DNA of 64,000 bases from contig OZ251539.1 of assembly GCA_965243135.1 (NCBI GenBank), positions 5,696,001 to 5,760,000 of the forward strand. Direction: 5' to 3'. A program made the position numbers and the translations under genes. The notes below the pieces were generated by a model. The model was given only the letters and a program-made list of their open reading frames with translations, had not been told where the DNA came from and made no database searches. This document shows positions 13,662-57,365 of this stretch, piece after piece. The stretch comes from Alphaproteobacteria bacterium. Lineage in GTDB: Bacteria; Pseudomonadota; Alphaproteobacteria; MPNO01; UBA830. The stretch's first letter is position 1, and every line of letters begins with the position of its first letter.

Positions 13662-13667
13662 TCGAAA

Positions 13668-13696
13668 AGAGTAGGCCGCCGCGCCGTCACCGTCAA
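13668..13696 (-). promoter_or_regulatory. sigma70-type leaderless promoter of paralog D
   Basis: TTGACG-17nt-TACTCT-6nt-ATG. Confidence 0.6.
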
Positions 13697-13868
13697 TGAG
13701 GAGGCGATTGGAGGCGTTTGCGCTGCGCCATGTTTTGCTGCCGTCAGCACAGCACTGCGCGGACCGCTCCGTCCACCCGCGGCGGCGCCATTCGCATTGA
13801 TCTTCGAATGCGCTATAATGCATCGCCCAAAGAGGCATTCTGTCGTCTGCATTCCAAGAGGAACATCG

Positions 13869-25275: not shown

Positions 25276-25287
25276 GCCCGGTTTCCT

Positions 25288-26373
25288 TTACGATGTTGCG
25301 CCGGCCGCCGGGCCGGACGATTCGGCGAGCGCGGCGTAGCGGCGGCGGTGCATTCCGGCGTTGCCGTAGCGCGCCGACAGGGTCATCGCCCGCTTCAGGC
25401 AGAGGCCGATGTCGTGTTCGTCCGTGAACCCGACGCCGCCGTGCATCTGGATCGCGGACTTGCAGACCGCGAGCGCGGCGTCGGCGGCGTAAGCCAGCGC
25501 GGCCGACGGCAGCGCCGGCGCGCCTCCGCCGGAATCCATGGCCCGCGCCGCCTGGTAGACCAGCGACCGGCACATTTCGACGGCGGCGTGATTGTCCACC
25601 GCCCGATGCTGCAACGCCTGGAAGGATCCGATCGGGCGGCCGAACTGTTCGCGAGTCTTCAGATATTCGATCGTCGTTTCCTGGGCGGCCTCCGCCACGC
25701 CGAGAAGTTCCGCCGCGGTGGCCAGATGGAGCGCGTCGAGCAGCGAGGCGACGGCCGCCGCGGCCTCGTTCGGGCCCGCCGCGAGACGCGCCTCGACGCC
25801 CGCAAACGATACGGTTCCGGTCGTCGTCCCGTCGGCCGCCCGCGACCATCGGACGTCCCCCGGCGGCGCGTGGACGAGAACCGTGCCGTCCGCGGCCGCT
25901 GCCGAAACCAGATACCCGTCCGCCCGGCCCGCGACGCCGGTCTTGGTCCCGTGCAGCGAGACGGCGCCGTTCCGCATCTTCGCGGCCGCCGCCGGCGGTT
26001 CGTCGCCGATCGCTCGGGGGCCCTCCGCCAGGGCCGGGAGGACGACCATGCGGCCCGCGACGACGGCCGAAGCCGTCTCCCGGTCTCCGCGCGCCAGCGC
26101 GCGCGCCGCCGCGGCGGCGGCGGCGATCGGTTCCGGGACGAGATTCCTGCCGAGTTGCTGGGAGACGAGGCACAGTTCCGTCAGCCCGAGGCCAAGTCCG
26201 CCGGCGGCTTCCGGCGCGAGAGCGGCGAGCCAGCCGGCCGCGGCGGCCTCCGACCAGATGCCGCGGTCGACGTCCCCCTCCGCCGGCCGGCGCAGCCGGT
26301 TCGCGTGCCGCGAGGCGAACGCCGCGGCGCTCTCGCGGAACATTTCCTGTTCTTCGGCGAGGACGAGGTCCAT
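25288..26373 (-). CDS. Acyl-CoA dehydrogenase family protein (short, heteromer-subunit-like)
   Basis: MDLVLAEEQEMFRES, YLKTREQFGRPIGSFQALQHR, IQMHGGVGFTDEHD. Confidence 0.88.
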   Translation of the reverse strand: MDLVLAEEQEMFRESAAAFASRHANRLRRPAEGDVDRGIWSEAAAAGWLAALAPEAAGGLGLGLTELCLVSQQLGRNLVPEPIAAAAAAARALARGDRETASAVVAGRMVVLPALAEGPRAIGDEPPAAAAKMRNGAVSLHGTKTGVAGRADGYLVSAAAADGTVLVHAPPGDVRWSRAADGTTTGTVSFAGVEARLAAGPNEAAAAVASLLDALHLATAAELLGVAEAAQETTIEYLKTREQFGRPIGSFQALQHRAVDNHAAVEMCRSLVYQAARAMDSGGGAPALPSAALAYAADAALAVCKSAIQMHGGVGFTDEHDIGLCLKRAMTLSARYGNAGMHRRRYAALAESSGPAAGATS

Positions 26374-27908
26374 CACGCGGTTCCCGCGCCGCCGCCGGCG
26401 AGGCGGCGGCGGAGTTCGGCCTTGACGACCTTGCCGGTGCTGTTGCGCGGGAGGGCCTCGACCGGCAGCACGAGCCTCGGTTTCTTGTAGCTCGCGATCA
26501 GGCCGCGGCAGTGATCGACCAGATCCTCGTCCGACGCCTCCGTCCCCTCTTCGAAAATGACGAAGGCCGCGACGCGTTCGCCGAATTCCGGGTCGGGCGC
26601 GGGCACGACCGCCGCCTCCCTCACCGCCGGATGCGCCTCCAGGGCGTCCTCGACCTCGCGGGCGTAAATGTTGAGCCCGCCCGAGACGATCATGTCCCGG
26701 GCCCGGCCGACGAAATAAAGGTAACCGTCTTCGTCCAGCCGCCCGATGTCGCCGGTCGCGAGCCAGTCGCCGTGGAACGCCGCCCGCGTTTCTTCCGGCC
26801 TGCGCCAGTATCCCGTCATCGCGGCGACGCCGCGGGGGCCGCAGCGCATCAATATCTCGCCGGCCTCCCCCGCCGGCAGGTCTCTGCGGTCCGCGTCGAC
26901 GATCCGCAACTCGACGCCGGGAACGGGCCTGCCGCAGGACGCCGGACGGGCTTCCTGCTCGTCGGGGCGGAGGCAAGCGATGAATCCCGCTTCGGTCTGG
27001 GCGTAGAAGCTGTAAAGGCCGAGGCCGGGGAGGGCCTTCGCGAGGCGCTTCTTGAGGTCGACCGGAAACGTCTCGCCCGTCGCCAACATGGCGCGCAGGG
27101 TCCGGCACGCGCGGGGGCGCTTCTCGAACTCGTCCATCAGCATGCGGGCGATGGTGGGCACGAGGCCGATGACGGTGATTCCTTCGCGTTCGATCGTGTC
27201 GACGCAGGCCGCCGGGTCGAAGCGCGGCATCACGACGACGGTGCAGCCGACCGACACCGCGTTGGCGATCCGGCCGAGCCCCGTGCGGTGAGCCAGCGGC
27301 GTCGTGGCGAGAATCCTGTCGTCCGGGCGCAGCCCGAATTCCCGCGCGTTGATGAAGCCGCTGAGGAGAACGATGCCGAGATTGGTCGCGACGGCGCCCT
27401 TGGGCCGGCCCGTGGTGCCGGAGGTGTATCCGATCAGGAGATCGTCGGGTTCGCCCGGCAACGGCGGCGGCGCGTCGTCGCCCGCGAGAAGGGTCTCGTA
27501 GGCGGTCTCGCCGGATTCCGCGCCGCCGACCGCGATCAGCAAGGGGTCCGCCAGTTCAGAAGCGGCGTCGCGAACGGCGTCGCGGAAATCCGGCGCGAAC
27601 AGGATGGCCCAGGGTTCGCAGTCGCGCAGGATGTATCGCGCTTCCGCAGGGGCGAGCCGGGTCGCGATCGGCACGATGACGCCGCCGGACTTCGCCGCGC
27701 CGAGCATGGCTTCCGCAAGTTCGGCGCTGTTGGGGAGATACATCGCGAGCCTGTCGCCGGGTTTCTGGCCCAGCGCCGCGAAGGCGCCGGCCAGCCGGCC
27801 GGCCGCGCGGTCGAGCTCGCCGAAGGAGATGCGCCGCTCGCCGCACACGACCGCTTCCCGATCCGGGAACCGCAGCGCGCTGCCGGCGAGCATCGCGCCG
27901 AGTTTCAC
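26373..27908 (-). CDS. Acyl-CoA synthetase / AMP-binding ligase
   Basis: YTSGTTGRPKG, YAQTE, TGDIGRLDEDG, RDMIVSGGLNIY, LPRNSTGKV; GTG start overlaps the upstream stop. Confidence 0.9.
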   Translation of the reverse strand: MKLGAMLAGSALRFPDREAVVCGERRISFGELDRAAGRLAGAFAALGQKPGDRLAMYLPNSAELAEAMLGAAKSGGVIVPIATRLAPAEARYILRDCEPWAILFAPDFRDAVRDAASELADPLLIAVGGAESGETAYETLLAGDDAPPPLPGEPDDLLIGYTSGTTGRPKGAVATNLGIVLLSGFINAREFGLRPDDRILATTPLAHRTGLGRIANAVSVGCTVVVMPRFDPAACVDTIEREGITVIGLVPTIARMLMDEFEKRPRACRTLRAMLATGETFPVDLKKRLAKALPGLGLYSFYAQTEAGFIACLRPDEQEARPASCGRPVPGVELRIVDADRRDLPAGEAGEILMRCGPRGVAAMTGYWRRPEETRAAFHGDWLATGDIGRLDEDGYLYFVGRARDMIVSGGLNIYAREVEDALEAHPAVREAAVVPAPDPEFGERVAAFVIFEEGTEASDEDLVDHCRGLIASYKKPRLVLPVEALPRNSTGKVVKAELRRRLAGGGAGTA

Positions 27909-28336
27909 CGGGAGCCGCCGCCTTCTTTCTCCGGTTTCTCCGGAACGAACGCGAAATAGGCTCCGTCTTCGCCGATCTTCTCCCAGACCACTTTCACCCG
28001 CATGCCGATCTCGGCGTCGTCGGGTGCGACGTCCTTGAGGTTCGCGATGATGCGCACGCCTTCGTCGAGTTCGATCAGGCCGACGACGTAGGGGGCCTTC
28101 CCGTCGAACCCCGCGGTCGGCACGTGGGTCACCGTGTACGAATAGAGCGTTCCCTTGCCGGAGGCGCGCCGCCACCGGAGATTGCGCTTGCCGCTGCGGA
28201 CGCTGTTGGCGCGGGGCCAGAACTGGTGCTTTCGCGTCGCAGGGTCGTACTGCAGCATCAATTCGCCTTCCTTCGCGCCGTCCCAGAACGGCTGCGTGGT
28301 CGGGGTCGGTTTCGGCGTCGGCCGCCGGTCGGCCAT
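27905..28336 (-). CDS. DUF35/ChsH2-like OB-fold protein lacking the zinc-ribbon cysteines
   Basis: PFWDGAKEGELMLQ..WPR..SGKGTLYSYTVTH..PYVVGLIELDEGVR..IGMRVKV; GGAGG RBS. Confidence 0.85.
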   Translation of the reverse strand: MADRRPTPKPTPTTQPFWDGAKEGELMLQYDPATRKHQFWPRANSVRSGKRNLRWRRASGKGTLYSYTVTHVPTAGFDGKAPYVVGLIELDEGVRIIANLKDVAPDDAEIGMRVKVVWEKIGEDGAYFAFVPEKPEKEGGGSR

Positions 28337-28350
28337 GTCCGTTCCTCCGT

Positions 28351-29532
28351 TCAGTTGACCAGGACCATGGCGGAGGCGGTTCCCCAGTTGCGCCCGTAGG
28401 GGATCACGCCGATGCCGGTGACCAGAGCGTTTCGCGGGTTCGGCACTTGCCGCTTTCCGGCTTCGCCCGTCAGCTGCCGCACGGCTTCGGCGAGGTTGAG
28501 CCCGCCCCCCGCCAGCCCTGGCTGGCCGCAGCTGATCTGGCCGCCGCCGGTGTTGATCGGAAGTTCGCCCTTCGGGCCGAGGTCGGTGTCGCGCAGGAAC
28601 TGCGATCCTTGTCCCTTCCCGGCGAAGCCGATCTGCTCGCATTTGAGCATCACCGCGAACAGGAAGTCGTCGTATGGATGGAACATGTCGACGTCGCGCG
28701 GCTTCATCTTCGCCTTCTTCAGGGCTTCGGGGCCCGACACGGAGTGTCCGGTCGCCGTGATGTCGGGGGTCTGGTTGGCGCAGTCGAAGTTGGAAATCTC
28801 GGCGTAGGAGAGGGGGTAGACCCGGTTGCCGAACCCGAGGCGGCGCGCGCGGCTGGTCTTCATCATGACGAGGCCGTTGCCGCCGTCGCAGAACATCACC
28901 GAATCGAGCAGCCTGAGCGGCGACGAGACCTGCCGCGATTCGAGGTAGTCGTCGACGGTGATCTTGCTGCGCAGCTTTTCGTAGGCGTTGGGATTCAGGA
29001 CCGCGCCGTTCCGCTGCGCCACGGCGAGCGCGCCGAGGCCGCGGAAATCGAGGTCGTGCTCGTGGGCGTACCGGTTCATCAGCAGCCCGAACGCTCCGGG
29101 CGGCCCCTGGATGCCCACGGGATCCCAGAACTCGTTGCGGTAGCTGCCGTAATTGGCGCGCCACTGGGTCGAAGGGGCGTCCGCCGCGATCAACATGACC
29201 GTGTCGCAGAGGCCGGCCTGGAGCGCCATGGCGGCGCGGGCGACGTTGCCGATCGCCGACGCGCCGCCGAGGTCGCTGGTCTGGAGCCATCGGGCCGAGA
29301 CGCCGAGGTATTCCGTCGCGTAGTTCGACCAGAACGGGTTGGCGCATTCGCTGAGCGGCACGGTGAAGGCGACGCCGTCGATGTCCCCGGGTTCGAGCCG
29401 CGTTTTCTTGTAAAGCCGTTCCGCGACCTCGGCCGCGATCTCGTAGGCCGATCTGCCGCCGCGCCGTTCGACCTTGGTTTCGGCGTAGGCGACGATGCAG
29501 ACGTCCTTGTTCGCGAGGAAGTTGCCGGCCAT
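28351..29532 (-). CDS. Thiolase-like protein (SCP2/Ltp2-type)
   Basis: LGGASA, GAVLNPNAY, ITVDDYLESR..PLRLLD, PYDDF, LPINTGGGQIS, EAVRQL..RQVPN. Confidence 0.85.
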   Translation of the reverse strand: MAGNFLANKDVCIVAYAETKVERRGGRSAYEIAAEVAERLYKKTRLEPGDIDGVAFTVPLSECANPFWSNYATEYLGVSARWLQTSDLGGASAIGNVARAAMALQAGLCDTVMLIAADAPSTQWRANYGSYRNEFWDPVGIQGPPGAFGLLMNRYAHEHDLDFRGLGALAVAQRNGAVLNPNAYEKLRSKITVDDYLESRQVSSPLRLLDSVMFCDGGNGLVMMKTSRARRLGFGNRVYPLSYAEISNFDCANQTPDITATGHSVSGPEALKKAKMKPRDVDMFHPYDDFLFAVMLKCEQIGFAGKGQGSQFLRDTDLGPKGELPINTGGGQISCGQPGLAGGGLNLAEAVRQLTGEAGKRQVPNPRNALVTGIGVIPYGRNWGTASAMVLVN

Positions 29533-29535
29533 GTC

Positions 29536-30381
29536 CTATTGTCCCCTGAATTCCGGCTTGCGCCGCTCGGAGAAGGCCGCCAGGCCCTCGGTCCTGTCCT
29601 CCGACCAGGACAGCAGGTAGGCGAGGTCGGATTCCTGCTGGAAGCCGAGGTGCAGGGGCAGGTCGCGCCCCCGGTTGACGGCCTGTTTCGACATCATGGT
29701 GGCGAGCGGGCCCACCTTGTGCATTTCTTCGACGATCTCGCGCACCTTCGCGACCGCCTGTCCCTTCGGCACGACGTGGTTGACGATGCGGAGTTCGCGG
29801 GCTTCCGCGGCCGGGATTCGCCGGCCGGTCCATATCAGTTCCTTGGCGAGCGGCGCGCCGATCAGGCGCTGCAGGTTCTGGGTGCCGCCGGCGCCCGGAA
29901 TCAGGCCGTGCCGGCCTTCCGGGAGGCCGAAGCTCGCGTTCTCGCCGGCGACGATGAAGTCGCCCAGCATCGCCATCTCGAAGCCGCCGCCGAGGCAGTA
30001 GCCTTCGACGGCCGAGACCACCGGCTTGGTGTAGTTCATCAGGAAGCGGTAGAGGAGCCGGTTCCTGCGGTGGTTGTATCGCGCCCGGTAGTTGTCGTAG
30101 CGGTCCTCCGGCAGATCCCGGAATCCTCCGAGATCGGCGCCGGCGCAGAAGGCGCGTTCGTCGCCCGACAGCACGACGGCGATGATCTTCCGGTCGAGTT
30201 CGACGGCGTCCATCGCGTGCATGATGTCGTCCGCCATTTCCTCGTTGATCGCGTTCAGCCGGTCGGGCCGGTTCAACCGGATCTCGAGCGCGCCCTTGCG
30301 CTTGCGGGCCAGAATCGCGTCGTAGGACTTTCTGATCGCGCCGCCGCGGGGGCGGCGGAAGGATTCCAGCTTTCTCGCCAT
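29536..30381 (-). CDS. Enoyl-CoA hydratase/isomerase (crotonase family)
   Basis: [50 protein letters not shown]. Confidence 0.9.
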
Positions 30382-32970: not shown

Positions 32971-33310
32971 ATCCTGTGCAGGTCTTCAGGGACGAACCCG
33001 GCGTCGGCCCGCATCAGTTCGCAAGCCCGCGCTTCCTGAACAACATGGACCGCGTCCCTCTCAACGCCGGGCGCGATATCGTCACCCGCATGGTTGTCGC
33101 CCTTGGGCGCGCGCCGTTCGAAGACGCCAGCTCTTCAAGTTCATCGACGCCTCCAACGATCATCCACATGGCGCGGACCGGGCGAGCGGATGACGAAAAG
33201 ACGGCGCGACGCGAACGCCTTTCGAAGCGTCGGCCGGCGGAGCGGCCCGGTGGACGGTTCGCCGCCGCTGCGATAGGTTGCGCCGCGTCGGTTCTGGCGG
33301 AGGGAGAAGC

Positions 33311-34825
33311 ATGGACACGTATCGACTCTATATCGGCGGCAGGTTCGTGGACGCTGAAGGCGGCGCGACGAAGCCGACCGTCAACCCGTACGACGGTTCG
33401 GAAATCGCAGCGGTGCCCGTTGCGAGCGCCGCGGACGCCCGCGCCGCGGTTGCGGCGGCCCGCCGGGCGTTCGACGAGGGGCCCTGGCCGCGGATGTCGG
33501 GCGAGGAGCGCAGCGCGATCATTTGTTCGCTGGCGGCCAGGATGAAGGAGCGGCAGAAGGATCTGGCGCGAATCGAGTCGCTGGATTCCGGAGGCACGAT
33601 CGCCAAGACCGGCGCCGACGCCTATCTCGCCCAGCGGCAGATGAACTATTTCGGGGAGATGGCGAAGAACTACAACGCCGAGCCGGAAGAGATCGCGGGC
33701 ATGTCGCGCCCCGGCCGGTCGTACAATTTCACCATCCGCGAGCCGATCGGCGTCTGCGCGTCGATCATCCCCTGGAACTTCCCGTTGATGATGGCGGTCT
33801 GGAAGCTCGGGCCGGCGCTCGCGACCGGCAACGCGATCGTGCTCAAGCCGGCGACGGACACGCCGCTTTCCGCCCTGGAGCTCGCGCGTCTCGTGGACGA
33901 ATGCGGCTTTCCGGAAGGCGTGGTCAACATCGTCACGGGTCCCGGCGGGCGGATCGGCGAGACGCTGACGACCAGCGCCGACGTCGACAAGGTCGCCTTC
34001 ACCGGCTCCACCGAGGTGGGGCGCGACATCATGTCCAGAGCGGCGGGAACGTTGAAGAAGGTGACGCTCGAGTGCGGCGGAAAGTCGGCCAACATCGTCT
34101 GCCACGACGCCAACTGGGACATCGCGGTCGACGGGTCGATCTTCGCCTCGTTCTATCATCAGGGACAGGTCTGCGAATCCGGCACGCGGCTGCTGCTGCC
34201 GGCGAGCCAGCACGATTCGTTCGTGGAAAAGATGGTCGCGAAGCTGGAGGCGCTGCCGATGGGCGATCCGCTCGATCCGGCGACGAAGGTCGGTCCGGTC
34301 GTTTCCGAGAAGCACATGCAGACGGTTCTCGACTACATCGAGAAGGGAAAGGCGGAGGGAGCGACGCTCGCCTGCGGCGGCGAACGCGCGAAGGACGGCG
34401 ATCTGGCGCGGGGCTGCTTCGTCAAGCCGACCGTCTTCACGGACGTGACCAACGACATGGCGATCGCGCGCGAGGAAATCTTCGGTCCGGTGCTCTGCGT
34501 CATGAAGTACGAGAGCGAGGACGAGGCGGTGTCGATCGCCAACGATTCAATCTACGGTCTCGGCGGCGGCGTCTGGTCGGAGGATCTGGACCGCGCGCGG
34601 TCGCTGGCGGCCCGATTGCGGACCGGCACTGTGTGGATCAACGACTGGCACCTGTTGTCCGAACGGATGCCGTTCGGCGGGTACAAGCAGTCGGGCATCG
34701 GACGCGAGTTCGGCGAGGAGGGCTTGAACGAATACACCGAAGTCAAGGCGCTGCACGTGGACGACGCCAAGACGCGGGAGAACAAGCCTTGGTACGACAT
34801 GTTGGTGCCGCGCGACGCGGCGTGA
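33311..34825 (+). CDS. Aldehyde dehydrogenase
   Basis: PWNFP, FTGSTEVG, LECGGKS, GQVCESG, EEIFGPV, PFGGYKQSG. Confidence 0.95.
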   Translation: MDTYRLYIGGRFVDAEGGATKPTVNPYDGSEIAAVPVASAADARAAVAAARRAFDEGPWPRMSGEERSAIICSLAARMKERQKDLARIESLDSGGTIAKTGADAYLAQRQMNYFGEMAKNYNAEPEEIAGMSRPGRSYNFTIREPIGVCASIIPWNFPLMMAVWKLGPALATGNAIVLKPATDTPLSALELARLVDECGFPEGVVNIVTGPGGRIGETLTTSADVDKVAFTGSTEVGRDIMSRAAGTLKKVTLECGGKSANIVCHDANWDIAVDGSIFASFYHQGQVCESGTRLLLPASQHDSFVEKMVAKLEALPMGDPLDPATKVGPVVSEKHMQTVLDYIEKGKAEGATLACGGERAKDGDLARGCFVKPTVFTDVTNDMAIAREEIFGPVLCVMKYESEDEAVSIANDSIYGLGGGVWSEDLDRARSLAARLRTGTVWINDWHLLSERMPFGGYKQSGIGREFGEEGLNEYTEVKALHVDDAKTRENKPWYDMLVPRDAA

Positions 34826-35872: not shown

Positions 35873-37324
35873 TTAAACCTGTATCGAATCGAGAATACTT
35901 GTCACATCTTGTGGTTGAAGTGCCCATCGGTATGCAGGATGAACTTCCCAATCGTATCCAAAATCTATAACTTCACTTGCCAAAAATCTATTTTGATCAA
36001 AATATCTTCTATCGATTCCGGATGATGTATCCTTTCTTGCAGTGATAAAGTCTATCTTATAAAGAAATTGTATCAGAGACTTTGGTGTGACGGGTCTTCC
36101 ATTTTTATAGTGAAGAGCCGAATGATCTATGATCTCTTTCATTTTTAGAACAAGCCTATCCGTAGCATATAGAAAACTACTGGAAGTTCTCCTTTCTCTC
36201 TTTGTTTGCCGCATACCTAACAACAACTTCTCAATCTGTGGAAGCTCACTCGAAAACTCATTTATTGTATCTTGAAGCCTTTCCAGTGAATACGGCTCAA
36301 ATACTGCCTCCAAATTCCCTGTGCTGATTATCTGACTATCATGCATATACGCGTTTCGAGCCGCACTGTGCATAAGTTTGATCAAATCTCTTGGCCTCCG
36401 TCTCGTCAGAGAGAGTAAGACGTTATGTATAGGGCGGTTACTCCAGTGGCCTCTTCCTCCGAAATTCGGATCCATAATTTTCGATAGTATATTCTTGGAT
36501 ATATCGGTCTGATTCATTCTCAATATAGCTTCTTGATCACATTCTCCGTCGAAGAAAGTTAAAACTCTTTTTGCAATTACAGAAAGTATTTCGTGATTGG
36601 TCCAAGAGAGCCAGATCACATGACGTTCTATTTTATCAGTCGACTCGTCAGAAGTCCGGACAAGATAATAAACATCTGTTCTCAGGCCAATACGAAATTT
36701 GATCCGACTGTCCGATCCAGAGAGGTCGCGAATGGCGTTTAGTAATGCAGAAATATTTCTTATACTACTTTCTGACGCATCCCATCCTCGGTCTATATCG
36801 TCTATATAAACGTTTATAGAACGATCTTGTAGAAATCTTTCAACAACTCTTCTTTTCAAATCATCCATGATAGATGGGCGTATATTTTCCAATGCTATTT
36901 TGATAGATTCAATCACATACCCCATGCTTTTCTTTGCAATTTGAGCATTCTGATTACTATCACCGCTATTAGTTATTCGAGAAATCGCTTTATGTATTAT
37001 CGCTGAAACTAAACCAAGTTTCCAATTTTCAATGAGTTGATTGAATTCCGACTTGTCTGCATTCCCAACATGAGCAATGAGGTCATTGGGTCTAATCCAA
37101 ACCGATAGCCTTAAATTTTCTTCATCGTCGATATATGCGCGACGTAATAAGGCACTCTTGCCTATTCCCTTGTGACCGACTAATATCCGTATCGGAATAT
37201 CAACGATGAGATTTTCATAAGTCCGGTTGGAGAAAAAATATTCTTTAAATCTCTCCAAGTTTTCGTTCTCAGCGTCTTCAGCTCCAAACAGACGTTCGTT
37301 TGTCGCGTCATCGAATTTAAACAT
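35873..37324 (-). CDS. AT-rich P-loop ATPase (resembles FunZ/Sll1717-type NTPases)
   Basis: FGAEDAENE, Walker A GHKGIGKS, Walker B YIDDIDRGW, LRTD, RPRDLI, EVHPAYRWAL; AAGGAG RBS; visibly more AT-rich than the flanks. Confidence 0.75.
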   Translation of the reverse strand: MFKFDDATNERLFGAEDAENENLERFKEYFFSNRTYENLIVDIPIRILVGHKGIGKSALLRRAYIDDEENLRLSVWIRPNDLIAHVGNADKSEFNQLIENWKLGLVSAIIHKAISRITNSGDSNQNAQIAKKSMGYVIESIKIALENIRPSIMDDLKRRVVERFLQDRSINVYIDDIDRGWDASESSIRNISALLNAIRDLSGSDSRIKFRIGLRTDVYYLVRTSDESTDKIERHVIWLSWTNHEILSVIAKRVLTFFDGECDQEAILRMNQTDISKNILSKIMDPNFGGRGHWSNRPIHNVLLSLTRRRPRDLIKLMHSAARNAYMHDSQIISTGNLEAVFEPYSLERLQDTINEFSSELPQIEKLLLGMRQTKRERRTSSSFLYATDRLVLKMKEIIDHSALHYKNGRPVTPKSLIQFLYKIDFITARKDTSSGIDRRYFDQNRFLASEVIDFGYDWEVHPAYRWALQPQDVTSILDSIQV

Positions 37325-39165: not shown

Positions 39166-40527
39166 CTACCTCCCTCGCGCGGCGATTTCGGGCGCGTTCT
39201 CCCGGTCGAGGCGGCCGTGATTGACCAACTGTGAGCGAATGGTCATCTGCGAGACGCCGAAACGCCTCGCGGTTTCCATCTGCCTGTCTTCGGAAAGATC
39301 GCCTGCCATCATGTCGTCCACGGCGGCGAAGGGGCTGAGCAACTCTGCCGCAAAGGCGCGTTGCACCTTCTGGCGGTAACTGTAGGTGCGCGTTGCGGGG
39401 TGCAACGCCTCTGTGGGGCGGCCGTTGCGAGCGGCAAACAGTCGGTCGCAAAGGAGACGCGCCAACTCGAAGCGCCGGCCCGTCTTCCATTTCGATTTCA
39501 ACGCCAAGCGCCCGCCGCCCGGCCGGTCGAGCGCGAAGCAGGGTCCGTTCCAACGCTTGCTCGTTCGCTCAATCGCTTTGGCTGTCGTTCCCGACAGGGC
39601 CGCGAGCCGTGCGTCGGCGATCGGCAGGCCGTCCAGTCCCTCCCGGTCGCGAACCGCTTGCGCCATGCCGTACCCCAACCGCCAGGCTTCGACGTCTGGC
39701 GCCTTTGGCAACTCCGTCCCGTCGGGCAACGCTACTGCGTCCTTCGGGTCGGCATCGAAACCGTTCCGCTTTGCGGCCTCCGTGATGTCCTGCGCTGAAA
39801 CCATCTCGTCGAGGGCGCGGCCGCGCAGGGCGGCGTCGGCAGCCACTTCGCCCCAGGCCTCTTCTCCCAGCTCATCCGCTCCGGCGAGATGCTGGCGGAT
39901 CAGGCAGTCGTCGACCTTGTCCGGATCGTACCCGAGCTGCGCTTCCAACCGTCGAAAGCGCGCAAGTTCAGGCTCGCGCCGCTCTACTGTCAGGTCGTTC
40001 CACAGGCGATGCAGGTTCGTGCTCTTCAATTTCCGTTCGTCCAGACAGGCCAGTATGTTTTTCGCGAAGTCGTCGATGGCGCTTTCCAGGCTCGCGGCCG
40101 GAATCGCTTCCCGTCGCGGTGAACCGACGCAGCGGAACAAGGCGGTGTACGGCTCCAGGGACGGCTCGGAGATCAGAAACGACATCGGACCGTCCGAGAA
40201 AATCGTAATATTTGGCCATACGTAGCCGTCGCCGACGGCCGACATGCAATGCGTAAAGTCCCAGTCAAGCGCAGCTTTCTCTCCGGAAGGCCTCCGCCCG
40301 AATTCCCACCGCAGCCGCCACCAATTCCACAGGAGCCATTCGGCCAGCGGGTAGCCGGCGACATGCGGGCCGATCTCCACACGCTCAATGTCTTCGACGA
40401 CGGTCAGCAATCTGCAGTTCGCCGTCATGGAGAGCATGCCGAATGTTGCCTTCTCTTCCGTCGACCCCTCGTCAAGGGGTTCGCAAGAAAGCGAAATTTT
40501 CAGTTCGTTGGACATCTCGTCTGCCAT
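39166..40527 (-). CDS. Hypothetical protein with a C-terminal ImmA/IrrE-like fold lacking HExxH
   Basis: YPLAEWLLWNWWRLRWE, GDGYVWPNITIFSDG, GRRFELARLL, QKVQRAFAAELLSP, VSQMTIRSQLVNH. Confidence 0.6.
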   Translation of the reverse strand: MADEMSNELKISLSCEPLDEGSTEEKATFGMLSMTANCRLLTVVEDIERVEIGPHVAGYPLAEWLLWNWWRLRWEFGRRPSGEKAALDWDFTHCMSAVGDGYVWPNITIFSDGPMSFLISEPSLEPYTALFRCVGSPRREAIPAASLESAIDDFAKNILACLDERKLKSTNLHRLWNDLTVERREPELARFRRLEAQLGYDPDKVDDCLIRQHLAGADELGEEAWGEVAADAALRGRALDEMVSAQDITEAAKRNGFDADPKDAVALPDGTELPKAPDVEAWRLGYGMAQAVRDREGLDGLPIADARLAALSGTTAKAIERTSKRWNGPCFALDRPGGGRLALKSKWKTGRRFELARLLCDRLFAARNGRPTEALHPATRTYSYRQKVQRAFAAELLSPFAAVDDMMAGDLSEDRQMETARRFGVSQMTIRSQLVNHGRLDRENAPEIAARGR

Positions 40528-41008: not shown

Positions 41009-41414
41009 GCGTCTGCGCCCGCCCCCGTAGCGGCGAAGCTGCTGACGCGCCCTCGCGGTCCTTGCGGATCTGTTGGCGGACAGCCGGAGCGATCCGCGGG
41101 GCGCCGGCCGGGCGCCGAGCCGACAAAAAACGGCGCAGCGCAAACGCCTCTCGCACTTGGCCATTCCGTGATGAAAGGCGCCGGCCATGCGGTAACGGCG
41201 TCAAGAGTGGGCGCGTTCCGACGCGTCGCTGATAACTCCCGCCGTTACCGAAGCCTTCCGGCCGGCGTGCGTCGCCGGTCGACGAAGACGACATCTCCCG
41301 TCGAAACCGCTTGAGCGTTGAATCCCCTCGCCGAAAATTCGGAGCCGCGCGGTGCGACGAAGCCCGTTCCGGGGAAGCCGTTGGTACAATGACTCTTCTG
41401 GAGGAAACGGCGAA

Positions 41415-42638
41415 ATGAACGGAATGACATCGCAAGATGCCGCAACGCCGCGCATCGAATGCCTGAAGGTGCGGAACTTCCGGGCCTTGCGGGACGTCGA
41501 GATCGCGAAACTGATGCCGTTGACAGTGCTCCTCGGCCCCAACGGCAGCGGCAAATCCACGGTGTTCGACGCGCTCGCCTTCCTCGCGGAGTGCTTTTCG
41601 TCCGGCCTGCGGCGCGCCTGGGATCGGCGCGGGCGGGCCAAGGAGCTCAGGACCTGCGACGCCGACGGGGCGGTGACGATAGAGATCAAATACCGTGAAC
41701 GACGAAAAACTCCGCTGATCACTTATCACCTGTCCATTGACGAGTTGGCCGGCGCGCCAGTAGTCGTCCACGAGTGGCTGGGCTGGAAACGAACGGGCTT
41801 CGAAGCGCCTTTTCGTTTCCTTGAGTACCGCCACGGCAGAGGCCAAGCCGCGAGCGGCGAAGTGCCGGACGCGGAAGACGAGCGGATCGAGACGCCGTTA
41901 AAATCGCCCGACCTGCTGGCGGTCAACGCGCTCGGGCAGTTCCAGGATCATCCGCGCGCGGCGGCGCTGCGCGATTTCATCATGGGTTGGCACGTTTCCT
42001 GCCTTTCGGCCGACAGCGCGCGTGCACAGCCGGAGGCGGGTCCGCAGGAGCGTCTGAGCACGAGCGGCGACAACCTCGCCAACGTCATCCAGCATCTAAG
42101 CGAACGGCACCCAAAGCGTCTCGACCTCATTTTCCAAACGCTGCGCCGGCGCGTGCCGCGCATCGAGCGCGTGCTGGCCGACGCCATGCCGGACGGCCGG
42201 CTGCTGCTGCAAATCAAGGACGCGCCGTTCAGCCACCCGGTTCTGGGGCGCTTCGCTTCCGATGGCACGCTAAAGATGCTGGCCTATCTGACGTTGCTGC
42301 ATGATCCGGAACCACCGCCCTTCATCGGCATCGAGGAGCCGGAAAACTTTCTGCATCCGCGCCTGCTCCACGAACTGGCGGAGGAATGCGCCGCGGCCGG
42401 CGAGCGCACGCAGATGCTCGTCGCCACCCATTCGCCATTCTTCCTGAATGCGCTGAAGCCCAAACAGGTTCGCGTCCTGTGGCGGGACGAAAAGGGCCAC
42501 GCGCGGTCGCGGCGAGTCGCCGACCTCGATGGCGTGCCCGATTTCATGGAAGCCGGCGCACTGCTCGGCGATCTCTGGATGGAAGGCTATTTCGGCGTTG
42601 GCGATCAGTTGACCCGGCATGGCGGAGAACGCCGGTGA
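41415..42638 (+). CDS. ABC-type ATPase (AAA_21/COG4637-like)
   Basis: [39 protein letters not shown]. Confidence 0.88.
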
Positions 42639-43200
42639 CGGCGGCGCGGCGCTTGGAAATCCCGATCGAAGAGCCGGAGGCCTTCTTGCAAGAGCTGCTA
42701 CCGCGGGTTCTCCCGGATGGCTGCGCGTGCCGCGTGGTCCAACGCAGAACTGTTGCGAAAGCTCGAACGCCGCTTGCTTGGATACCGTCGTCGGCTATCC
42801 GCCGAATGGCGACTCGTCGTCGCGGTTGATCGCGACAACGACGATTGCCATGCGCTCAAGAGGCAACTCGAACAGGCGGCAGGCGGGCCTGCTTGCGCGC
42901 TCGCGCGGCCAGGAGATGCCGCGGCAAGTGATCAACCGCGAGGCATGGTATTTCGGCGATTGGGAGGCGGTGCGCCAAGCTTATCCAGGAGTCCAGCCCA
43001 ACATCCCGTATCAAGCGCGTTACCGCGACCCGGACGCCGTCCGGGGCGGGACCTGGGAAGCGTTCGAGCGTAGAAGCGCGGCTATTTCCGAAACGGGTTG
43101 CGCAAGACCGAAGCCGCGCGAACCATCGCCCCTAACATCGACCCGGCACGCAACCGTTCGCGGAGTTTCACGATGCTTTGGCCGAGGCGACCGCATGAAA
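42635..43200 (+). pseudogene. DUF4276-like partner of the ATPase, multiply frameshifted
   Basis: EEPEAFLQELLPR / KLERRLLGY..VDRDNDDC / EAWYFGDWEAV..DPDAVRGGTWEAFER / KTEAARTIAP..NRSRSF in shifting frames. Confidence 0.7.
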
Positions 43201-43525
43201 CGAGCGGAAACGGCGGCGTGAACGACCTTTCGGAATCCCTTTTCGGCATCGTCCCCAAGCGGCTCTTCGGTCGCGGCTGGGCCGCCGTCCGCGGTCCCGG
43301 CGAGGTCGCGCCGCCAGCCGAACGCATGGCTGGCGTGTCTTGAGCGACGGTCCCGGCGCTGGTTCCGCGGGAGACTCTCGCCAGGCCCCGCGAATTCGAA
43401 CGCTTCGGCGGGTCCGAGTTGGGAAGCCTCAATCCGCGCGCGTCTTCCGGCGCTGTCGAAGCCGGTTGCAAAAGGATCGCAGGCGGTCGCCTCGGACCCG
43501 ACGCGCGGGGCGGGAACGACCGTCT

Positions 43526-44633
43526 TCAGGCTCCCGCGACCCGGCGAGATGTCCGCTCCTCGGGGAAGTGCCTGAAGGTGTTGACGGCCGAACGGTAATC
43601 GTCCAGCCCCAAACGGGCGCGGATGTCCGCGGTCGCCTTGAGAACCATCGGATCCACGCCGCAGCCATTGGCGATGCGGTCGTTTTTGGAGAAATTCGCC
43701 GCGATGGCCGCCGCCGCGGGCACGGCTTGGGGGCCGATGGCCCCGGCCACGGCGTCGCGCGCCCGGCGCCTCGCGATCCGAACCGATCGCCGTCTCGGCG
43801 AAATCCAGCAACTCGGCGCCGCCGGGAACGCCGATGTCCTGCGACGGATCGACCAGCGCGTCGAGATTGATGTTCATGTCGGCGTCGCGTCCACTCTCAC
43901 GGAGGAACCGGGCATGCCCGGAGGTTCAGAAAAAGCACTCGTTGATCGCCGACACCCGGCCGGCGACCACCTCCGCCTGGGCGCGGCTGAACCCCTCGTG
44001 ATGCTGGTAATCGGGCACCATGATCCGGTGCAGCGGGAGATACTGAACCTCCTCCAGCTCCAGGTGGCGGCGCAGTTCGTCCGGCACCAGACTCATGCCG
44101 CGGACGATGTAGGGCTTGGGTTTGCCGCCGTATAACTCGTCGGCCGCTGCGCCGCCGTCCGGCGGGTTGGGGACGGTCGGCACCCAGGCCAGCTCCTGCA
44201 CCGCCGCCGCCGGGCGTTCGCGCGACGGCGCGCCGGGTCGGGCCGTCGGCAGCGGCCGAAGATCGACGCCGATGCCGCGCATGTCGAGGTTCGTGACTCG
44301 CGCGACGAGGCCGACGATCTCGACGTATTCCTCGTCGCTTAAGCCGCCCCGGCGCGCTTCCTCGTAAGACTCTTCGTCGACGTCCTTGGGGTCGACGGCA
44401 AGCCGCCGAACCATCGTCCGCGCCGCCTCGGGCAAATCGGCGTTCGCCGACTCGGCGCCGCCGGCGGACGGCTCCAGCCTGCCGGCTTCGTAGCCCGCCT
44501 GACGGGTTTCGACAGCGACTGCGAGACGCTGGGCGCCGGTTCCCCAAGCGCCGGCCAGCTGGTCGATCTGCCTGGCGTGGACGCCCGCCAGATCGTCCCG
44601 AACGTGGTACCGCGAGTCGGAGTATAGGGGCAT
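43526..44633 (-). CDS. AhpD/CMD-like protein with in-frame UGA (candidate selenocysteine at 43926-43928); additional frameshift near 43770
   Basis: SRAQAEVVAGRVSAINECFF-UGA-TSGHARFLRESG..MNINLDAL..GVPGGAELLDFAE reads through in frame. Confidence 0.7.
43885..43925 (-). promoter_or_regulatory. Candidate bacterial SECIS element
   Basis: Directly 3' of the UGA: CCGGG-CAUG-CCCGG hairpin and a CUC-CGU-GAG mini-hairpin about 25 nt downstream. Confidence 0.4.
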
Positions 44634-44644
44634 TCGTCCTCCGG

Positions 44645-54175: not shown

Positions 54176-55477
54176 TCAGGGAAAGAGTTGTCCCGGAAGC
54201 CAGAGAGCGAGCTGGGGGAACAGCATCAGCAGCGCGATCAGCACGGCGTCCGCCACGAGAAAGGGCGCGATGCCGCGGAAGACGGTCGAGAGCGCGACGT
54301 TTTCCAGCTGGGCGCGGATGACGAAGATGTTCAGCCCCACCGGCGGCGTGATCAGGCCTACCTCCACGACCACCACCATCAGTACGCCGTACCAGACGGT
54401 GTCGTAACCGAGAGCGACGACGATGGGCAGAAAGACGGGAACCGTCACGAGGATGATCGCCACCGATTCGAGAACGCAACCCAGGACGATGTAGAAGGCG
54501 AGAATGATCAGGATGACCGCCCAAGGCGCCAGCGACAAGGCGTCGATGAGGTCGATCATCGCGTTCGGAAGCCGGGTCTGGACGACGAAATATGCGAATA
54601 TCCACGCCCCCGCGATGATGAACATCAGCATCGCGGTCGTGCGCAGCGTGTCCGCGAGGCAGTCGACGAAGCCCTTCCAGCCGAGTTTTCCGGTGCCGGC
54701 CGCGATGACGATGGCGGCGAACGAGGCGATGCCGGCCGCCTCGGTCGGACTGAACCAGCCGGTATAGATGCCGCCCACCGCCAGACCGAACAGCACGACC
54801 AGTTTCCACATGGCCAGGGAGGCGGCCAGGCGCTCGCGCCACGGCATGCGAGGGCCGGCCGGCGTCCATTCCGGACGCACGCGGGCGATGACCCAGATCA
54901 CGGCGACGAAAAGGAAGGTGAGAAGAAGTCCCGGAATCATTCCTGCGGCGAACAGGGCCGGCACCGATTCCTCGGCCGCCAGGGCGTAGATCACCATGAT
55001 CACCGAAGGCGGAATGAGAATGCCGAGCGTGCCGCCGGCGGCGACCGACCCGGTCGCGAGCCGCTCGTCGTAACCGTACCGGCGCATTTCCGGGACGGCG
55101 ATCCGGGTGAAGGTCGCCGCGGTGGCGAGCGAAGACCCGCTGATCGCCGCGAAGCCCGCGCAGGCGCCGATCGTCGCCATGGGAAGCGCGCCCCGCCGTC
55201 CGGCGAACAGGGCGTTGGCGGCGACGAACAATTCCTGCGACATGCCGGCGCGGGTCGCGACGGCGCCCATCAGGACGAAAAGAGGCAGGACCGAGAAGGC
55301 GTAACTCGAAAGAAAATAGGGAGTTTCTCCGAACACGATGAAGGCGCGCTCCCAGCCGTCGATCGCTGCGTATCCGACCAGGCCGGTCAAGCCCATCGCC
55401 GCGCCCAGGGGCACGCGGAGGAGCGTGAGCGCGACCAGGCCGAGAATGCCGAACGCGCCGATGAGTTGCGTCGTCAC
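54176..55477 (-). CDS. dctM: TRAP transporter large permease
   Basis: SGSSLATAA, GGTLGILIPPS, SPTEAAG, GLITPPVGLN. Confidence 0.92.
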   Translation of the reverse strand: MTTQLIGAFGILGLVALTLLRVPLGAAMGLTGLVGYAAIDGWERAFIVFGETPYFLSSYAFSVLPLFVLMGAVATRAGMSQELFVAANALFAGRRGALPMATIGACAGFAAISGSSLATAATFTRIAVPEMRRYGYDERLATGSVAAGGTLGILIPPSVIMVIYALAAEESVPALFAAGMIPGLLLTFLFVAVIWVIARVRPEWTPAGPRMPWRERLAASLAMWKLVVLFGLAVGGIYTGWFSPTEAAGIASFAAIVIAAGTGKLGWKGFVDCLADTLRTTAMLMFIIAGAWIFAYFVVQTRLPNAMIDLIDALSLAPWAVILIILAFYIVLGCVLESVAIILVTVPVFLPIVVALGYDTVWYGVLMVVVVEVGLITPPVGLNIFVIRAQLENVALSTVFRGIAPFLVADAVLIALLMLFPQLALWLPGQLFP

Positions 55478-55962
55478 GCCGGATCCCGGCGGCGCAGCGC
55501 CGCCCGCATGTCGCGCAGAAAAACCGCCGTGACGGCCAGGAACGAAGCCGCCACGCCGGTCAGGACGAGGCTGGCCTTCCAGATCACGGGATATTGCAGG
55601 TCGGCCGTAACTTCGTTGAATTCGACGAACTCGACGGCAGGTTCGACCATGTGAAACGCCAGCAGGCCCATGAAGACGACGGACGCGGCGACGCCGGTCA
55701 GCTTGAGCAGTTCGACTCCGCGCGGCGGCACGATCTGGTCGATCAACTCGATCGTGATGTGCCGGCCCCGCAGGAAAGCCTCCGGAATGGCGAGAAACGC
55801 GACGCCGGCAAGGAACAGCTCGACGATCTCGTAGGTGCCGAATATCGGCGCGTTGAAACCGGACCGCAGTCCCACGTCGAGCACGTTGATCGCGACCATG
55901 GCGATCAGAAGGATGGCGGCGGCGCGAGAAAGAAATCGCGCCGCCGCCAAGGCGAGGGACAT
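55474..55962 (-). CDS. dctQ: TRAP transporter small permease
   Basis: DVGLRSGFNAPIFGTYEIV, HITIELI; hydrophobic. Confidence 0.85.
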   Translation of the reverse strand: MSLALAAARFLSRAAAILLIAMVAINVLDVGLRSGFNAPIFGTYEIVELFLAGVAFLAIPEAFLRGRHITIELIDQIVPPRGVELLKLTGVAASVVFMGLLAFHMVEPAVEFVEFNEVTADLQYPVIWKASLVLTGVAASFLAVTAVFLRDMRAALRRRDPA

Positions 55963-55970
55963 GGCCGCCG

Positions 55971-56999
55971 CTATTCGCTTGCGTACTTCGCGGACAGCGC
56001 TTTCATCTTTCCGAAGACCTCGCGCGCCGGCAGGCCTTTTTTCTCGAGGCCGGCGATCTTGGCTTCGATCACCTTGTCGGCGGCCTGACGCATTCGCGCG
56101 TCGGCCTCGGCGCTCAACGGCACCGACTCGATGTTGATCTTCTTCATGTAGTCGGTGAACACGGGAAAATCGTCCCAGGTGAGGGTCGACATTTGAATCG
56201 CGTTGTCGCGCGACCCGAGGTCGTCGACCATGGCCCGCAGGTCGGCCGGCAGGTTGCCGTACGATTTTTCGTTCATGGCGAAGCCGAAACTGATCACCGA
56301 CACGAACATGTTCGTGTAGTACTTCACCAGCCCGCCGAGCTTGAAGGCGAAGATGCCCGAGGGATCGGTCACCACGCCGTCGATCGTCTTCTTCTGCAGC
56401 GATTCCGCCATCAGCGGAGCCGGCAGGCCGATGGGCAGGGCACCGAGGGACTTCATCATCGCCACGTCGGTCGGCGTCGGCGCGCGGTAGCGGCGCCCCT
56501 TGAGGTCGTCCACCGTCCGGATGGGAATCTGGGAATCGTAGATCCCCGACGGGCGGTTGAACACGATCCACAACGCTTTGGTTCCCTTGTGCTCGGCTGC
56601 GAGGTAGGGGGCCTTGAGGTCGTGCGCGACCTTCGCTCCGACAAGCGACCCCTTGAAGCCGGGCGGGAACAGGTACGGAGCGTGCGTGAGTTCGGTCAGC
56701 GGAAACCTGCCCGGGGTCGTGCCGTGCTGGAAGAACGACAGGTCGGCGACGCCCTTGCGCGCGAGGTCGTAATGCCGCGGCATCGGCCCCATCGAAGCGC
56801 CGTAGAACACTTCGAGGTTGAGGCGTCCGCCGCTTTTCTCGGCCAGCTCTTTTTGCTTCAACTCGAACCAGCGAGTGCTTGACGCCGCTTTCGGCGTGAA
56901 ATTCGCGACCTTGAGGGTATAGGTCTTCTGCGCGGTCGCGGAGCCTGCGGCGAGCATGCCAGCCGCCGCCGCAAGGGCGAGTGAACAGGATATGCGCAT
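55971..56999 (-). CDS. dctP: TRAP transporter substrate-binding protein
   Basis: Signal peptide, YDLARKGVAD, TPGRFPLTEL, DLKGRRYRAP, MNEKSY; GGAGG RBS. Confidence 0.9.
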   Translation of the reverse strand: MRISCSLALAAAAGMLAAGSATAQKTYTLKVANFTPKAASSTRWFELKQKELAEKSGGRLNLEVFYGASMGPMPRHYDLARKGVADLSFFQHGTTPGRFPLTELTHAPYLFPPGFKGSLVGAKVAHDLKAPYLAAEHKGTKALWIVFNRPSGIYDSQIPIRTVDDLKGRRYRAPTPTDVAMMKSLGALPIGLPAPLMAESLQKKTIDGVVTDPSGIFAFKLGGLVKYYTNMFVSVISFGFAMNEKSYGNLPADLRAMVDDLGSRDNAIQMSTLTWDDFPVFTDYMKKINIESVPLSAEADARMRQAADKVIEAKIAGLEKKGLPAREVFGKMKALSAKYASE

Positions 57000-57003
57000 C
57001 GGT

Positions 57004-57365
57004 ATTCCTCCCGTTTTGTCGCGGATCAGCGAGAGAGCGCCGGCCGGGCCTGTACGCTGTTCCGCAAGCCTGCTTGTCCAAGCCGTTAGACAGTCTGCCA
57101 TAATTCGGCGGGACGGCATAGCCGGACAGCGCCGCCCCTTTCGCCGCCGCGCGCGCGGCCGTCAGATGACGCCGACCCTTGATGCGCCTCGCAGAACTTT
57201 CGCCGCCGCGTGCGGGGCCGTCGGCCAGCGCGATGGCTTTCCGCGGTCGGCCAGTCCTGCCCGCTGTCCGGCATCTTCTCGACGGCTGGCGTTCCGTAGC
57301 CGACCGCCCACGTTGTCAGGGGTCCAGGTCCGTGCGGAGTGACGGAGGGGAAACAGGTCATTCCC
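57004..57365 (+). repeat. Diverged direct repeat copy 1 (copy 2 = 59462-59563 joined to 62410-62660 across the IS insertions)
   Basis: CGCGGATCAGCGAGAGAGCGCCGGCCGGGCCTGT..GCAAGCCTGCTTGTCCAAGCCGTTAG, then AGTCTGCCA.AATTCGGCGGG..GGCATCTTCTCGAC.GCTGGCGTTCCGTAGCCGAC..GGAGGGGAAACAGG. Confidence 0.8.

Follow-up and report, generated by a model that had tools for sequence, protein, structure and literature searches.

Does the TGA at 43928-43926, on the minus strand of a stretch of alphaproteobacterial DNA (contig OZ251539.1, positions 5,696,001 to 5,760,000; the whole 64-kb stretch is hereafter 'the window'), terminate a gene of 235 codons, or is it read as selenocysteine (Sec) within a longer one? 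A preliminary description of this locus (43526-44633) had favored the second answer, and proposed a hidden, AhpD-type selenoprotein gene with a CxxUxxxH motif that annotation would divide in two. From comparisons with related genes, we conclude, as very probable, that the locus is a copy of an already known selenoprotein family, NF041238 (the AhpD-related CF[YF]UT family), that its UGA is read as Sec, and that this particular copy is damaged.

Results

A reading frame that continues beyond the TGA

The ATG start of the gene, as read from the sequence, is at 44633-44631 (minus strand, as are all coordinates of the gene), and the N-terminal 235 codons (43929-44633; MPLYSDS..AINECFF), which include Glu221 and Cys233, are delimited by their translation and by their match to NF041238. 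This upstream open reading frame (ORF) ends ..AGRVSAINECFF and is followed by the TGA (43926-43928); past this codon the same frame reads TSGHARFLRESGRDADMNINLDAL.., yielding the arrangement C233-x-x-U236-x-x-x-H240 (CxxUxxxH), in which the TGA would be the Sec codon U236 of C-F-F-U-T-S-G-H. The minus-strand translation thus agrees with the earlier statement that the ORF ending ..VSAINECFF continues in frame past the UGA. Another 53 codons follow in the original frame (TSGHARFLRESG..AIGSDREA; 43767-43925, from the translation and the NF041238 match), and the C-terminal 79 codons (RARDAVAGAIGPQ..NTFRHFPEERTSRRVAGA; 43529-43765, from the NF041238 match) lie in the +1 frame, which closes with a TGA at 43526-43528. 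This sequence has a G+C content of 64%. The 235-aa stump is identical to the public protein entry P0002, and it keeps all of the invariant columns of the alignment in which it was compared (A1).

When read through the TGA, the sequence matches NF041238, an NCBIfam equivalog model of 357 positions with a curated cut-off of 175 bits, over profile positions 1-293 (278 bits, E 1.3e-82). The 235-aa N-terminal part attains 214.3 bits by itself (positions 1-238), which is above the cut-off, and the +1 frame at 43777-43526 covers positions 296-357 (E 2.3e-12). The motif of the family is present as E-C-F-F-U-T-S-G-H, with the U supplied by the in-frame TGA and the His four residues after it; what is missing is the one continuous frame (i.e., ~357-371 codons, continuing from the TGA to a ..NTF[RK]H.. 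C-terminus), which is broken at about 43766. Judged by these matches, the sequence is a member of NF041238 whose product, as sequenced, would not be complete. The Pfam CMD domain (PF02627) is detected at residues 212-251 when the TGA is read through (25.1 bits against a gathering threshold of 23), and neither half of the gene alone matches it. The models for AhpD proper (TIGR00777; 18.1 bits, E 0.0019, cut-off 191.95) and for peroxidase-related enzymes (TIGR01926; 40.9 bits against a cut-off of 81.8) were not reached: on sequence grounds, TIGR01926 is related to the NF041238 family, but the gene is no member of it.

The family itself is known, and has been curated together with its motif and Sec codon. 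NF041238 is a model named after the motif and the family appears in reviews, such that the gene is not hidden in the sense of the preliminary description. In the portions of the literature cited here, AhpD-like CXXU selenoproteins are reported from the Sargasso Sea selenoproteome, together with a 'hypothetical protein 1' family that is also CXXU and comprised four sequences without functional evidence (PMC1088965, 2005); AhpD-like 1 and 2 are placed among the abundant marine selenoproteins (PMC2398784); and a 2026 review lists NF041238 as a CxxU selenoprotein, equating it with the Sargasso 'hypothetical protein 1' (PMC13188914). According to the same review, selC may be located within selB in Alphaproteobacteria.

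Conservation of the UGA and replacement by cysteine

A protein search recovered 321 homologs at E <= 0.001. Of these, 120 were listed; all 120 end in C-F-[FY] and 98 are 239 aa long, the window's own entry P0002 being one of the 120; from their sequences, these listed homologs are stumps cut at the same stop. To look past this stop, the DNA itself was scanned in one genome per species with peptide patterns that stop before the Sec codon and are thus without bias for Sec over Cys. Of 423 stretches confirmed, the best 80 were kept as loci, mostly from metagenome-assembled genomes (MAGs) of Alphaproteobacteria/Rhodospirillales; three are gammaproteobacterial and one belongs to the Bryobacterales. 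TGA occupies the aligned codon in 80 of the 80 (76 by the first pattern and the other four by a looser one), demonstrating that the UGA is conserved, and the frame remains open for 123-132 codons beyond it in 79. The exception, L019 from a long-contig MAG, has a private C-terminal frameshift (10718-11026); 102 codons follow its TGA, and its tail diverges. In the 63 loci whose start was found by pattern (the other 17 were left out of this count), the read-through proteins contain exactly one internal TGA each and are 358-371 aa long, save for the frameshifted L019 (342); the enzyme of ~370 aa originally proposed is therefore sound as one of ~360-370 aa.

A profile search of 1.84 billion cluster representatives returned 2115 at E <= 0.001, the best 150 of which were examined. 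Twenty-five run through the motif, 24 of them with Cys and one with Ser at the Sec position, and 92 end exactly at C-x-x; the other 33 fit neither pattern; at least five of these also stop at that point, but with different residues, and two (P0245 and P0288) show CxxC. Because Cys-bearing full-length relatives occur beside stumps that end at C-x-x, the Sec/Cys pairing is present in this family. Homologs with either Cys or a conserved TGA at this position, and a frame that does not lose its conservation at the UGA, had been among the things to look for, and both were found. Given the strength of the NF041238 match and the TGA in all 80 related loci, the assignment of the locus as an AhpD-type CxxUxxxH selenoprotein gene is well beyond chance.

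As had been foreseen, annotation splits the gene in two, and it does so systematically: in public collections (P0003-P0121, P0242-P0391), all 120 listed homologs and at least 92 of the 150 representatives are stored as stumps that end at the Sec codon. The C-terminal parts are present there as separate 'hypothetical proteins', and P0209 alone, among the entries seen, is named 'alkylhydroperoxidase-related (seleno)protein, partial'.

A conserved hairpin downstream of the UGA

Two hairpins had been noted immediately after the UGA. Both exist, CCGGG-CAUG-CCCGG at 43908-43921 and CUC-CGU-GAG at 43903-43895, but only the second belongs to a conserved element. It forms the tip of a hairpin, GUUCCUC-CGUGA-GAG(U)GGAC (43889-43908; columns 33-52 of alignment A2), that resembles a Sec insertion sequence (SECIS) and whose apical loop, CGUGA (43901-43897), lies 24 nt after the UGA; the spacing rule of bSECISearch is 16-37 nt. 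A2 covers 75 nt around the TGA in all 80 loci and in the window; the segment GGTTCCTCCGTGAGAGTGGAC hardly varies in it, and the hairpin core of the window is identical to the consensus. With the U bulged (columns 33-39 with 45-52), 94.4% of 518 cells are paired, compared with 31-68% when the 3' partners are slid. The unbulged version (columns 34-39 with 45-50) is paired in 84.7% of 444 cells, and its covariation score of 0.126 was reached by none of 500 shuffles. The first hairpin was rejected as a conserved element, in that its columns (20-24 with 29-33) are paired in 67.0% of 370 cells and in the same proportion when slid by -1.

Synonymous sites are constrained across the same region. Over codons +7 to +12 (F-L-R-E-S-G), the major-codon fraction is 0.99 across the 80 loci, as compared with 0.56 over 127 other columns with a conserved amino acid. 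In the part cited here, the criterion for a bacterial SECIS is a stem-loop shortly 3' of the UGA whose apical loop is small and includes a G (PMC1088965), and the hairpin at 43908-43889 has such a loop (CGUGA), along with conserved pairing, compensatory changes and constrained synonymous sites. A conserved RNA hairpin is therefore established for the family, and the comparison supplies a description of the NF041238 SECIS-like element, whose core of 18 nt hardly changes between Alphaproteobacteria and a Bryobacterales genome.

One subfamily (L059, L062, L063, L065, L069, L071, L073 and L076) has A-L-R-E-G-A in place of F-L-R-E-S-G, and a perfect 6-bp stem (GCAC UC / GG GUGC) instead of the bulged one. 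Pair 34-50 of the unbulged version is UG in 64 rows and GC in eight, the GC rows being those of this subfamily; within the subfamily stem A-U, G-U and G-C alternate at one pair. As read from these sequences, the stem is a second, compensated version of the SECIS-like hairpin.

Fold and proposed chemistry

A profile of 38 full-length homologs (A4), searched against the PDB, matched the AhpD structure 6k40 over profile positions 183-332 (E 2.5e-10), with further matches to 3c1l (9.9e-08), 2oyo and 2prr within positions 183-337. The CxxC of the solved proteins aligns with CxxU, such that U236 corresponds to the second Cys of CxxC in solved AhpD-family proteins; the His follows four residues later, and the Glu precedes the first Cys by 12. 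Residues E225, C237, U240 and H244 (numbered as in the intact homolog L001) are invariant in A4, and their equivalents in the window (E221, C233, U236 and H240) are all kept. The AlphaFold2 model of L001 is all-helical (predicted local distance difference test, pLDDT, 94.7; predicted TM-score, pTM, 0.94), and Foldseek aligned it in the PDB with 2prr, 3c1l, 3lvy, 2pfx, 6k40 and the debrominase Bmp8 (target-normalized TM-score, TMt, 0.53-0.70), and with Sestrin2 over 344-376 columns. Together, profile and model establish an AhpD-like fold for the family.

The intended product would be an all-helical protein of ~365 aa with a tandem AhpD/CMD-like fold, the C-terminal half of which would form an AhpD-type redox centre consisting of Glu221, Cys233-x-x-Sec236 and His240, with Sec taking the place of the second Cys of CxxC. 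We infer that Sec is actually inserted in this family, and that the second lobe of a tandem AhpD-like protein holds a selenol/thiol redox centre. As for its chemistry, a selenol/thiol oxidoreductase of the AhpD or peroxidase-related type is likely. The UGA at 43928-43926 would be read as Sec with the help of the hairpin at 43908-43889, which lies inside the coding sequence and keeps the codons for F-L-R-E-S-G fixed.

Damage to the copy in the window

Two gaps distinguish the window copy from L001, L035 and L004, with which it was aligned (A5). The larger in length removes six nucleotides in frame at 43657-43658 (columns 274-279), and with them the Ile-Pro of GCG-IP-VDP. The more disruptive one removes five nucleotides at 43765-43767 (columns 161-165), leaving a lone C at 43766 where the relatives have Leu-Asp codons, and thereby shifts the frame. 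A frameshift near 43770 had been suspected; it is located at about 43766, where the profile match splits between frames and five nucleotides are missing relative to homologs. Both gaps are unique to the window copy. The nine closest C-terminal relatives (65-92% identical) are all intact: ..DRxxLDxAR.. is uninterrupted, as is GCGI[PS].., with IP in eight of the nine and IS in one. Across the 80 loci, the Ile is kept in 79 and the Pro in 80. Programmed frameshifting at 43766 was considered and rejected, since the closest relatives have five more bases and no shift.

The 5-nt deletion would put the last ~79 codons out of frame, and the C-terminal helices of the family could not be made from the gene as sequenced. 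The shifted frame still runs open as far as the TGA at 43528-43526 and shares 92% identity with P0122, so that any inactivation would be recent. In the window, at least 11 further genes match family profiles from end to end without a break, which argues against an assembly that is generally riddled with indels. Unless the indels are assembly errors, this copy is, from its sequence, most likely a recent pseudogene; it is accordingly flagged as damaged and is unsuitable as a reference sequence.

Genomic context

The selenoprotein gene follows the genes of a tripartite ATP-independent periplasmic (TRAP) transporter on the minus strand: dctP (47520-46507; NCBIfam NF037995, DctP, E 6.5e-22), dctQ (46482-45964; Pfam DctQ, E 3.1e-18) and dctM (45952-44645; NCBIfam TIGR00786, E 1e-90). 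An 11-nt spacer (44634-44644), which contains a GGAGG at 44642-44638, separates the TGA of dctM (44647-44645) from the ATG, and a promoter-like site upstream of dctP (47651-47622) is a consensus match only.

If this arrangement were functional, the enzyme would be tied to the transporter and act on the imported substrate, as the preliminary description suggested. The short distance to dctM, the gene's own GGAGG, the shared strand and the single promoter-like site upstream of dctP all fit such a tie, but comparison with other genomes lends it no support. A DctM-like match within 5 kb upstream and on the same strand occurs in two of the 80 loci (at 27-30% identity), any TRAP-like match in 16 of 80 when up to 10 kb on each side are surveyed, and the one complete DctPQM set (in L014) is downstream of the gene. 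The recurrent neighbors are different ones: clusters of short-chain dehydrogenases/reductases (SDR) in 19 loci, glutathione S-transferases (GST) in 18, zinc-dependent alcohol dehydrogenases (Zn-ADH) in 16, and another CMD protein, OsmC, class II aldolase and a xylose-isomerase-like TIM barrel in 15 each. Another TRAP transporter lies in the window at 54176-57119 (minus strand; dctM 54176-55477, dctP 55971-57119); since TRAP systems are common in this genome, adjacency to one is weak evidence of linkage, and we regard a functional tie as very unlikely. No neighbor is conserved, the best cluster occurring in 19 of 81 regions (the 80 loci plus the window), and the neighbors have, from their sequences, at most a loose redox/detoxification flavor.

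Several other features of the window deserve mention. Convergent with the selenoprotein gene is a pair of plus-strand ORFs that overlap by 20 nt: an AAA-family ATPase (41352-42638), whose best NCBIfam match is the antiphage model MADS3 (NF047739; E 1.2e-33, 116.9 bits, below the cut-off of 420), and an ORF at 42619-43221 with a weak match to DUF4276 (27.4 bits against a cut-off of 30.2). By sequence, the pair (41352-43221) looks like a two-gene defense-type module. A Sll1717-family P-loop ATPase (35873-37324, minus strand; NF047389, full-length, E 1.5e-66), with a third-position G+C content (GC3) of 0.35, sits in a patch of 37-45% G+C, as against ~64% for the window, and its composition makes an origin as foreign DNA, or as a piece of a defense island, probable. 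Between the two ATPase genes of this putative island is a gene-like ORF of 453 aa (39166-40527, minus strand; GC3 0.77) with no match in Pfam or NCBIfam. Elsewhere, the minus strand carries a catabolic run (23884-30381; UbiD-family decarboxylase, acyl-CoA ligase, thiolase-like protein and enoyl-CoA hydratase); an aldehyde dehydrogenase is encoded at 33278-34825, and the 3' part of 12198-15263 encodes a marine-subtype ammonium transporter.

Discussion

If the TGA were an ordinary stop, the locus would encode two proteins, the N-terminal one of 235 aa and a second that begins at the ATG of MNINLDAL at 43877. Gene callers do predict two ORFs, and TGA is a normal stop in this genome, as in dctM. 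However, the 16 codons that separate the TGA from that ATG count among the family's most conserved (T-x-G-H-A-x-F-L-R-E-S-G), and most homologs have no Met at the proposed start, with L, I or T instead (..TDLNINL, ..TGLNVNL). Full-length Cys forms are single proteins, the AhpD domain of solved structures spans the site, and termination would cut the motif between its two redox residues. The prospect that this is an ordinary stop is, in our estimation, close to nil. The opposite possibility, that an alternative genetic code makes TGA a regular sense codon, was rejected, since both dctM and the gene's own shifted frame end in TGA. A possible explanation that combines a former Sec codon with present termination is that the lineage has lost Sec decoding, such that translation stops at the UGA and the 3' part, no longer translated, decays. 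Both deletions are indeed 3' of the UGA, the 235 upstream codons keep every invariant residue, and no Sec machinery is seen in the window; but 64 kb of sequence is not enough to establish the absence of sel genes, and decay would also be expected of a stump without Sec and His. Moreover, since the SECIS and the post-frameshift codons are near-consensus, the decay would have to be very recent. We consider such a loss unlikely.

A rather different view of the damage is that the gene is intact in the organism, that errors of assembly or consensus produced the 5-nt and 6-nt gaps, and that a normal protein of ~367 aa is made. This would be in line with a shifted frame that stays open until a stop where one is expected and that closely resembles its nearest relative, with a SECIS core equal to the consensus, and with the retention of the catalytic Glu, Cys, Sec and His; and L019, another long-contig MAG locus, also has a private frameshift in its copy. 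Against it, two multi-base gaps fall 108 nt apart in one gene while the other genes counted above match end to end, and the second gap drops residues kept in all, or all but one, of the loci. Also, the usual consensus errors are single-base homopolymer slips, unlike gaps of five and six bases. Assembly error is possible, if somewhat doubtful, as the source of both gaps.

Our preferred reading, a damaged NF041238 gene whose UGA specifies Sec, has to contend with a number of results that weigh against it. ARAGORN found no tRNA genes, hence no tRNA-Sec, within the window, and there is no selA, selB or selD among the 43 ORFs scanned there. For three stretches after the UGA, folding is no better than for dinucleotide shuffles (z +1.10, +0.85 and +0.14); because the hairpins are not unusually stable for a GC-rich sequence, the case for a SECIS rests on the comparison of homologs and not on folding energy. 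Rfam yielded no family at gathering score in the whole window and no SECIS at E up to 10 in 43700-44100, where it returned only chance-level matches to mir-645 and CcsR1. Covariation is limited, with double changes at one or two pairs only, because the element is almost invariant; for the same reason, RNAalifold returned a mere four pairs (-0.87 kcal/mol) from A2. None of the Foldseek E-values is <= 0.001, all being 0.017 or weaker, and the cited portions of the literature report no tested function for any NF041238 member. Finally, the two gaps, seen in the assembled sequence, may be deletions or assembly errors. A crude screen of the window for a second selenoprotein (i.e., an in-frame TGA with high GC3 on both sides) returned 11 other sites, all with off-frame-looking translations.

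Mycobacterium tuberculosis AhpD (TIGR00777; PDB 1knc/1gu9) belongs to the same class of CxxCxxxH redox motif. It uses Cys130, Cys133, His137 and Glu118, with a Glu-to-Cys spacing of 12, the same as here. The gene is nonetheless no AhpD orthologue, as indicated by a PDB profile E of 0.16 and by its low TIGR00777 score of 18.1 bits, and no AhpC partner is evident within the window. The AhpD-like selenoproteins and peroxidase-related enzymes (TIGR01926, COG2128; Cys forms 6k40, 3c1l, 2prr and 2oyo) are ~190 aa long, align with the C-terminal half, and have a similar fold in their solved forms (TMt 0.53-0.70). The NF041238 protein is, in contrast, twice as long, with a family-specific N-terminal part of ~180 aa that lacks a CxxC.

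Sestrin2 (PDB 5dj4, 5cuf and 9lvj) is the only solved protein that matches nearly the whole model (344-376 columns; query-normalized TM-score, TMq, 0.38-0.45), and it too is helical and AhpD-like, with two lobes. This is a weak match (E 0.017 to 0.3, root-mean-square deviation 11-15 Å, 10-14% identity) with no relationship at the level of sequence, and Sestrin2 senses leucine in eukaryotes. One might speculate that NF041238 is the bacterial, selenium-using counterpart of a two-lobe sestrin (a degenerate AhpD lobe followed by an active CxxU lobe), and that this lineage, having taken it into a TRAP uptake operon, is now in the course of losing it; the position of both private deletions 3' of the UGA would then be what a prior failure of Sec decoding predicts. 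Such a scenario strikes us as decidedly improbable. If true, it would provide a dated loss of a selenoprotein, together with a substrate lead for a family that has been without a function since 2005.

With respect to the NF041238 family itself, the window gene departs from its relatives in its private 5-nt frameshifting gap and its private 6-nt gap, and in its atypical position behind a TRAP operon. Its Phe, rather than Tyr, before the U is a common variant, as 57 of the 120 listed homologs end in CFF. What it shares with the family is the profile match, the C-F-[FY]-U-T motif with its x-G-H continuation, the length class, the TGA codon and the core of the hairpin.

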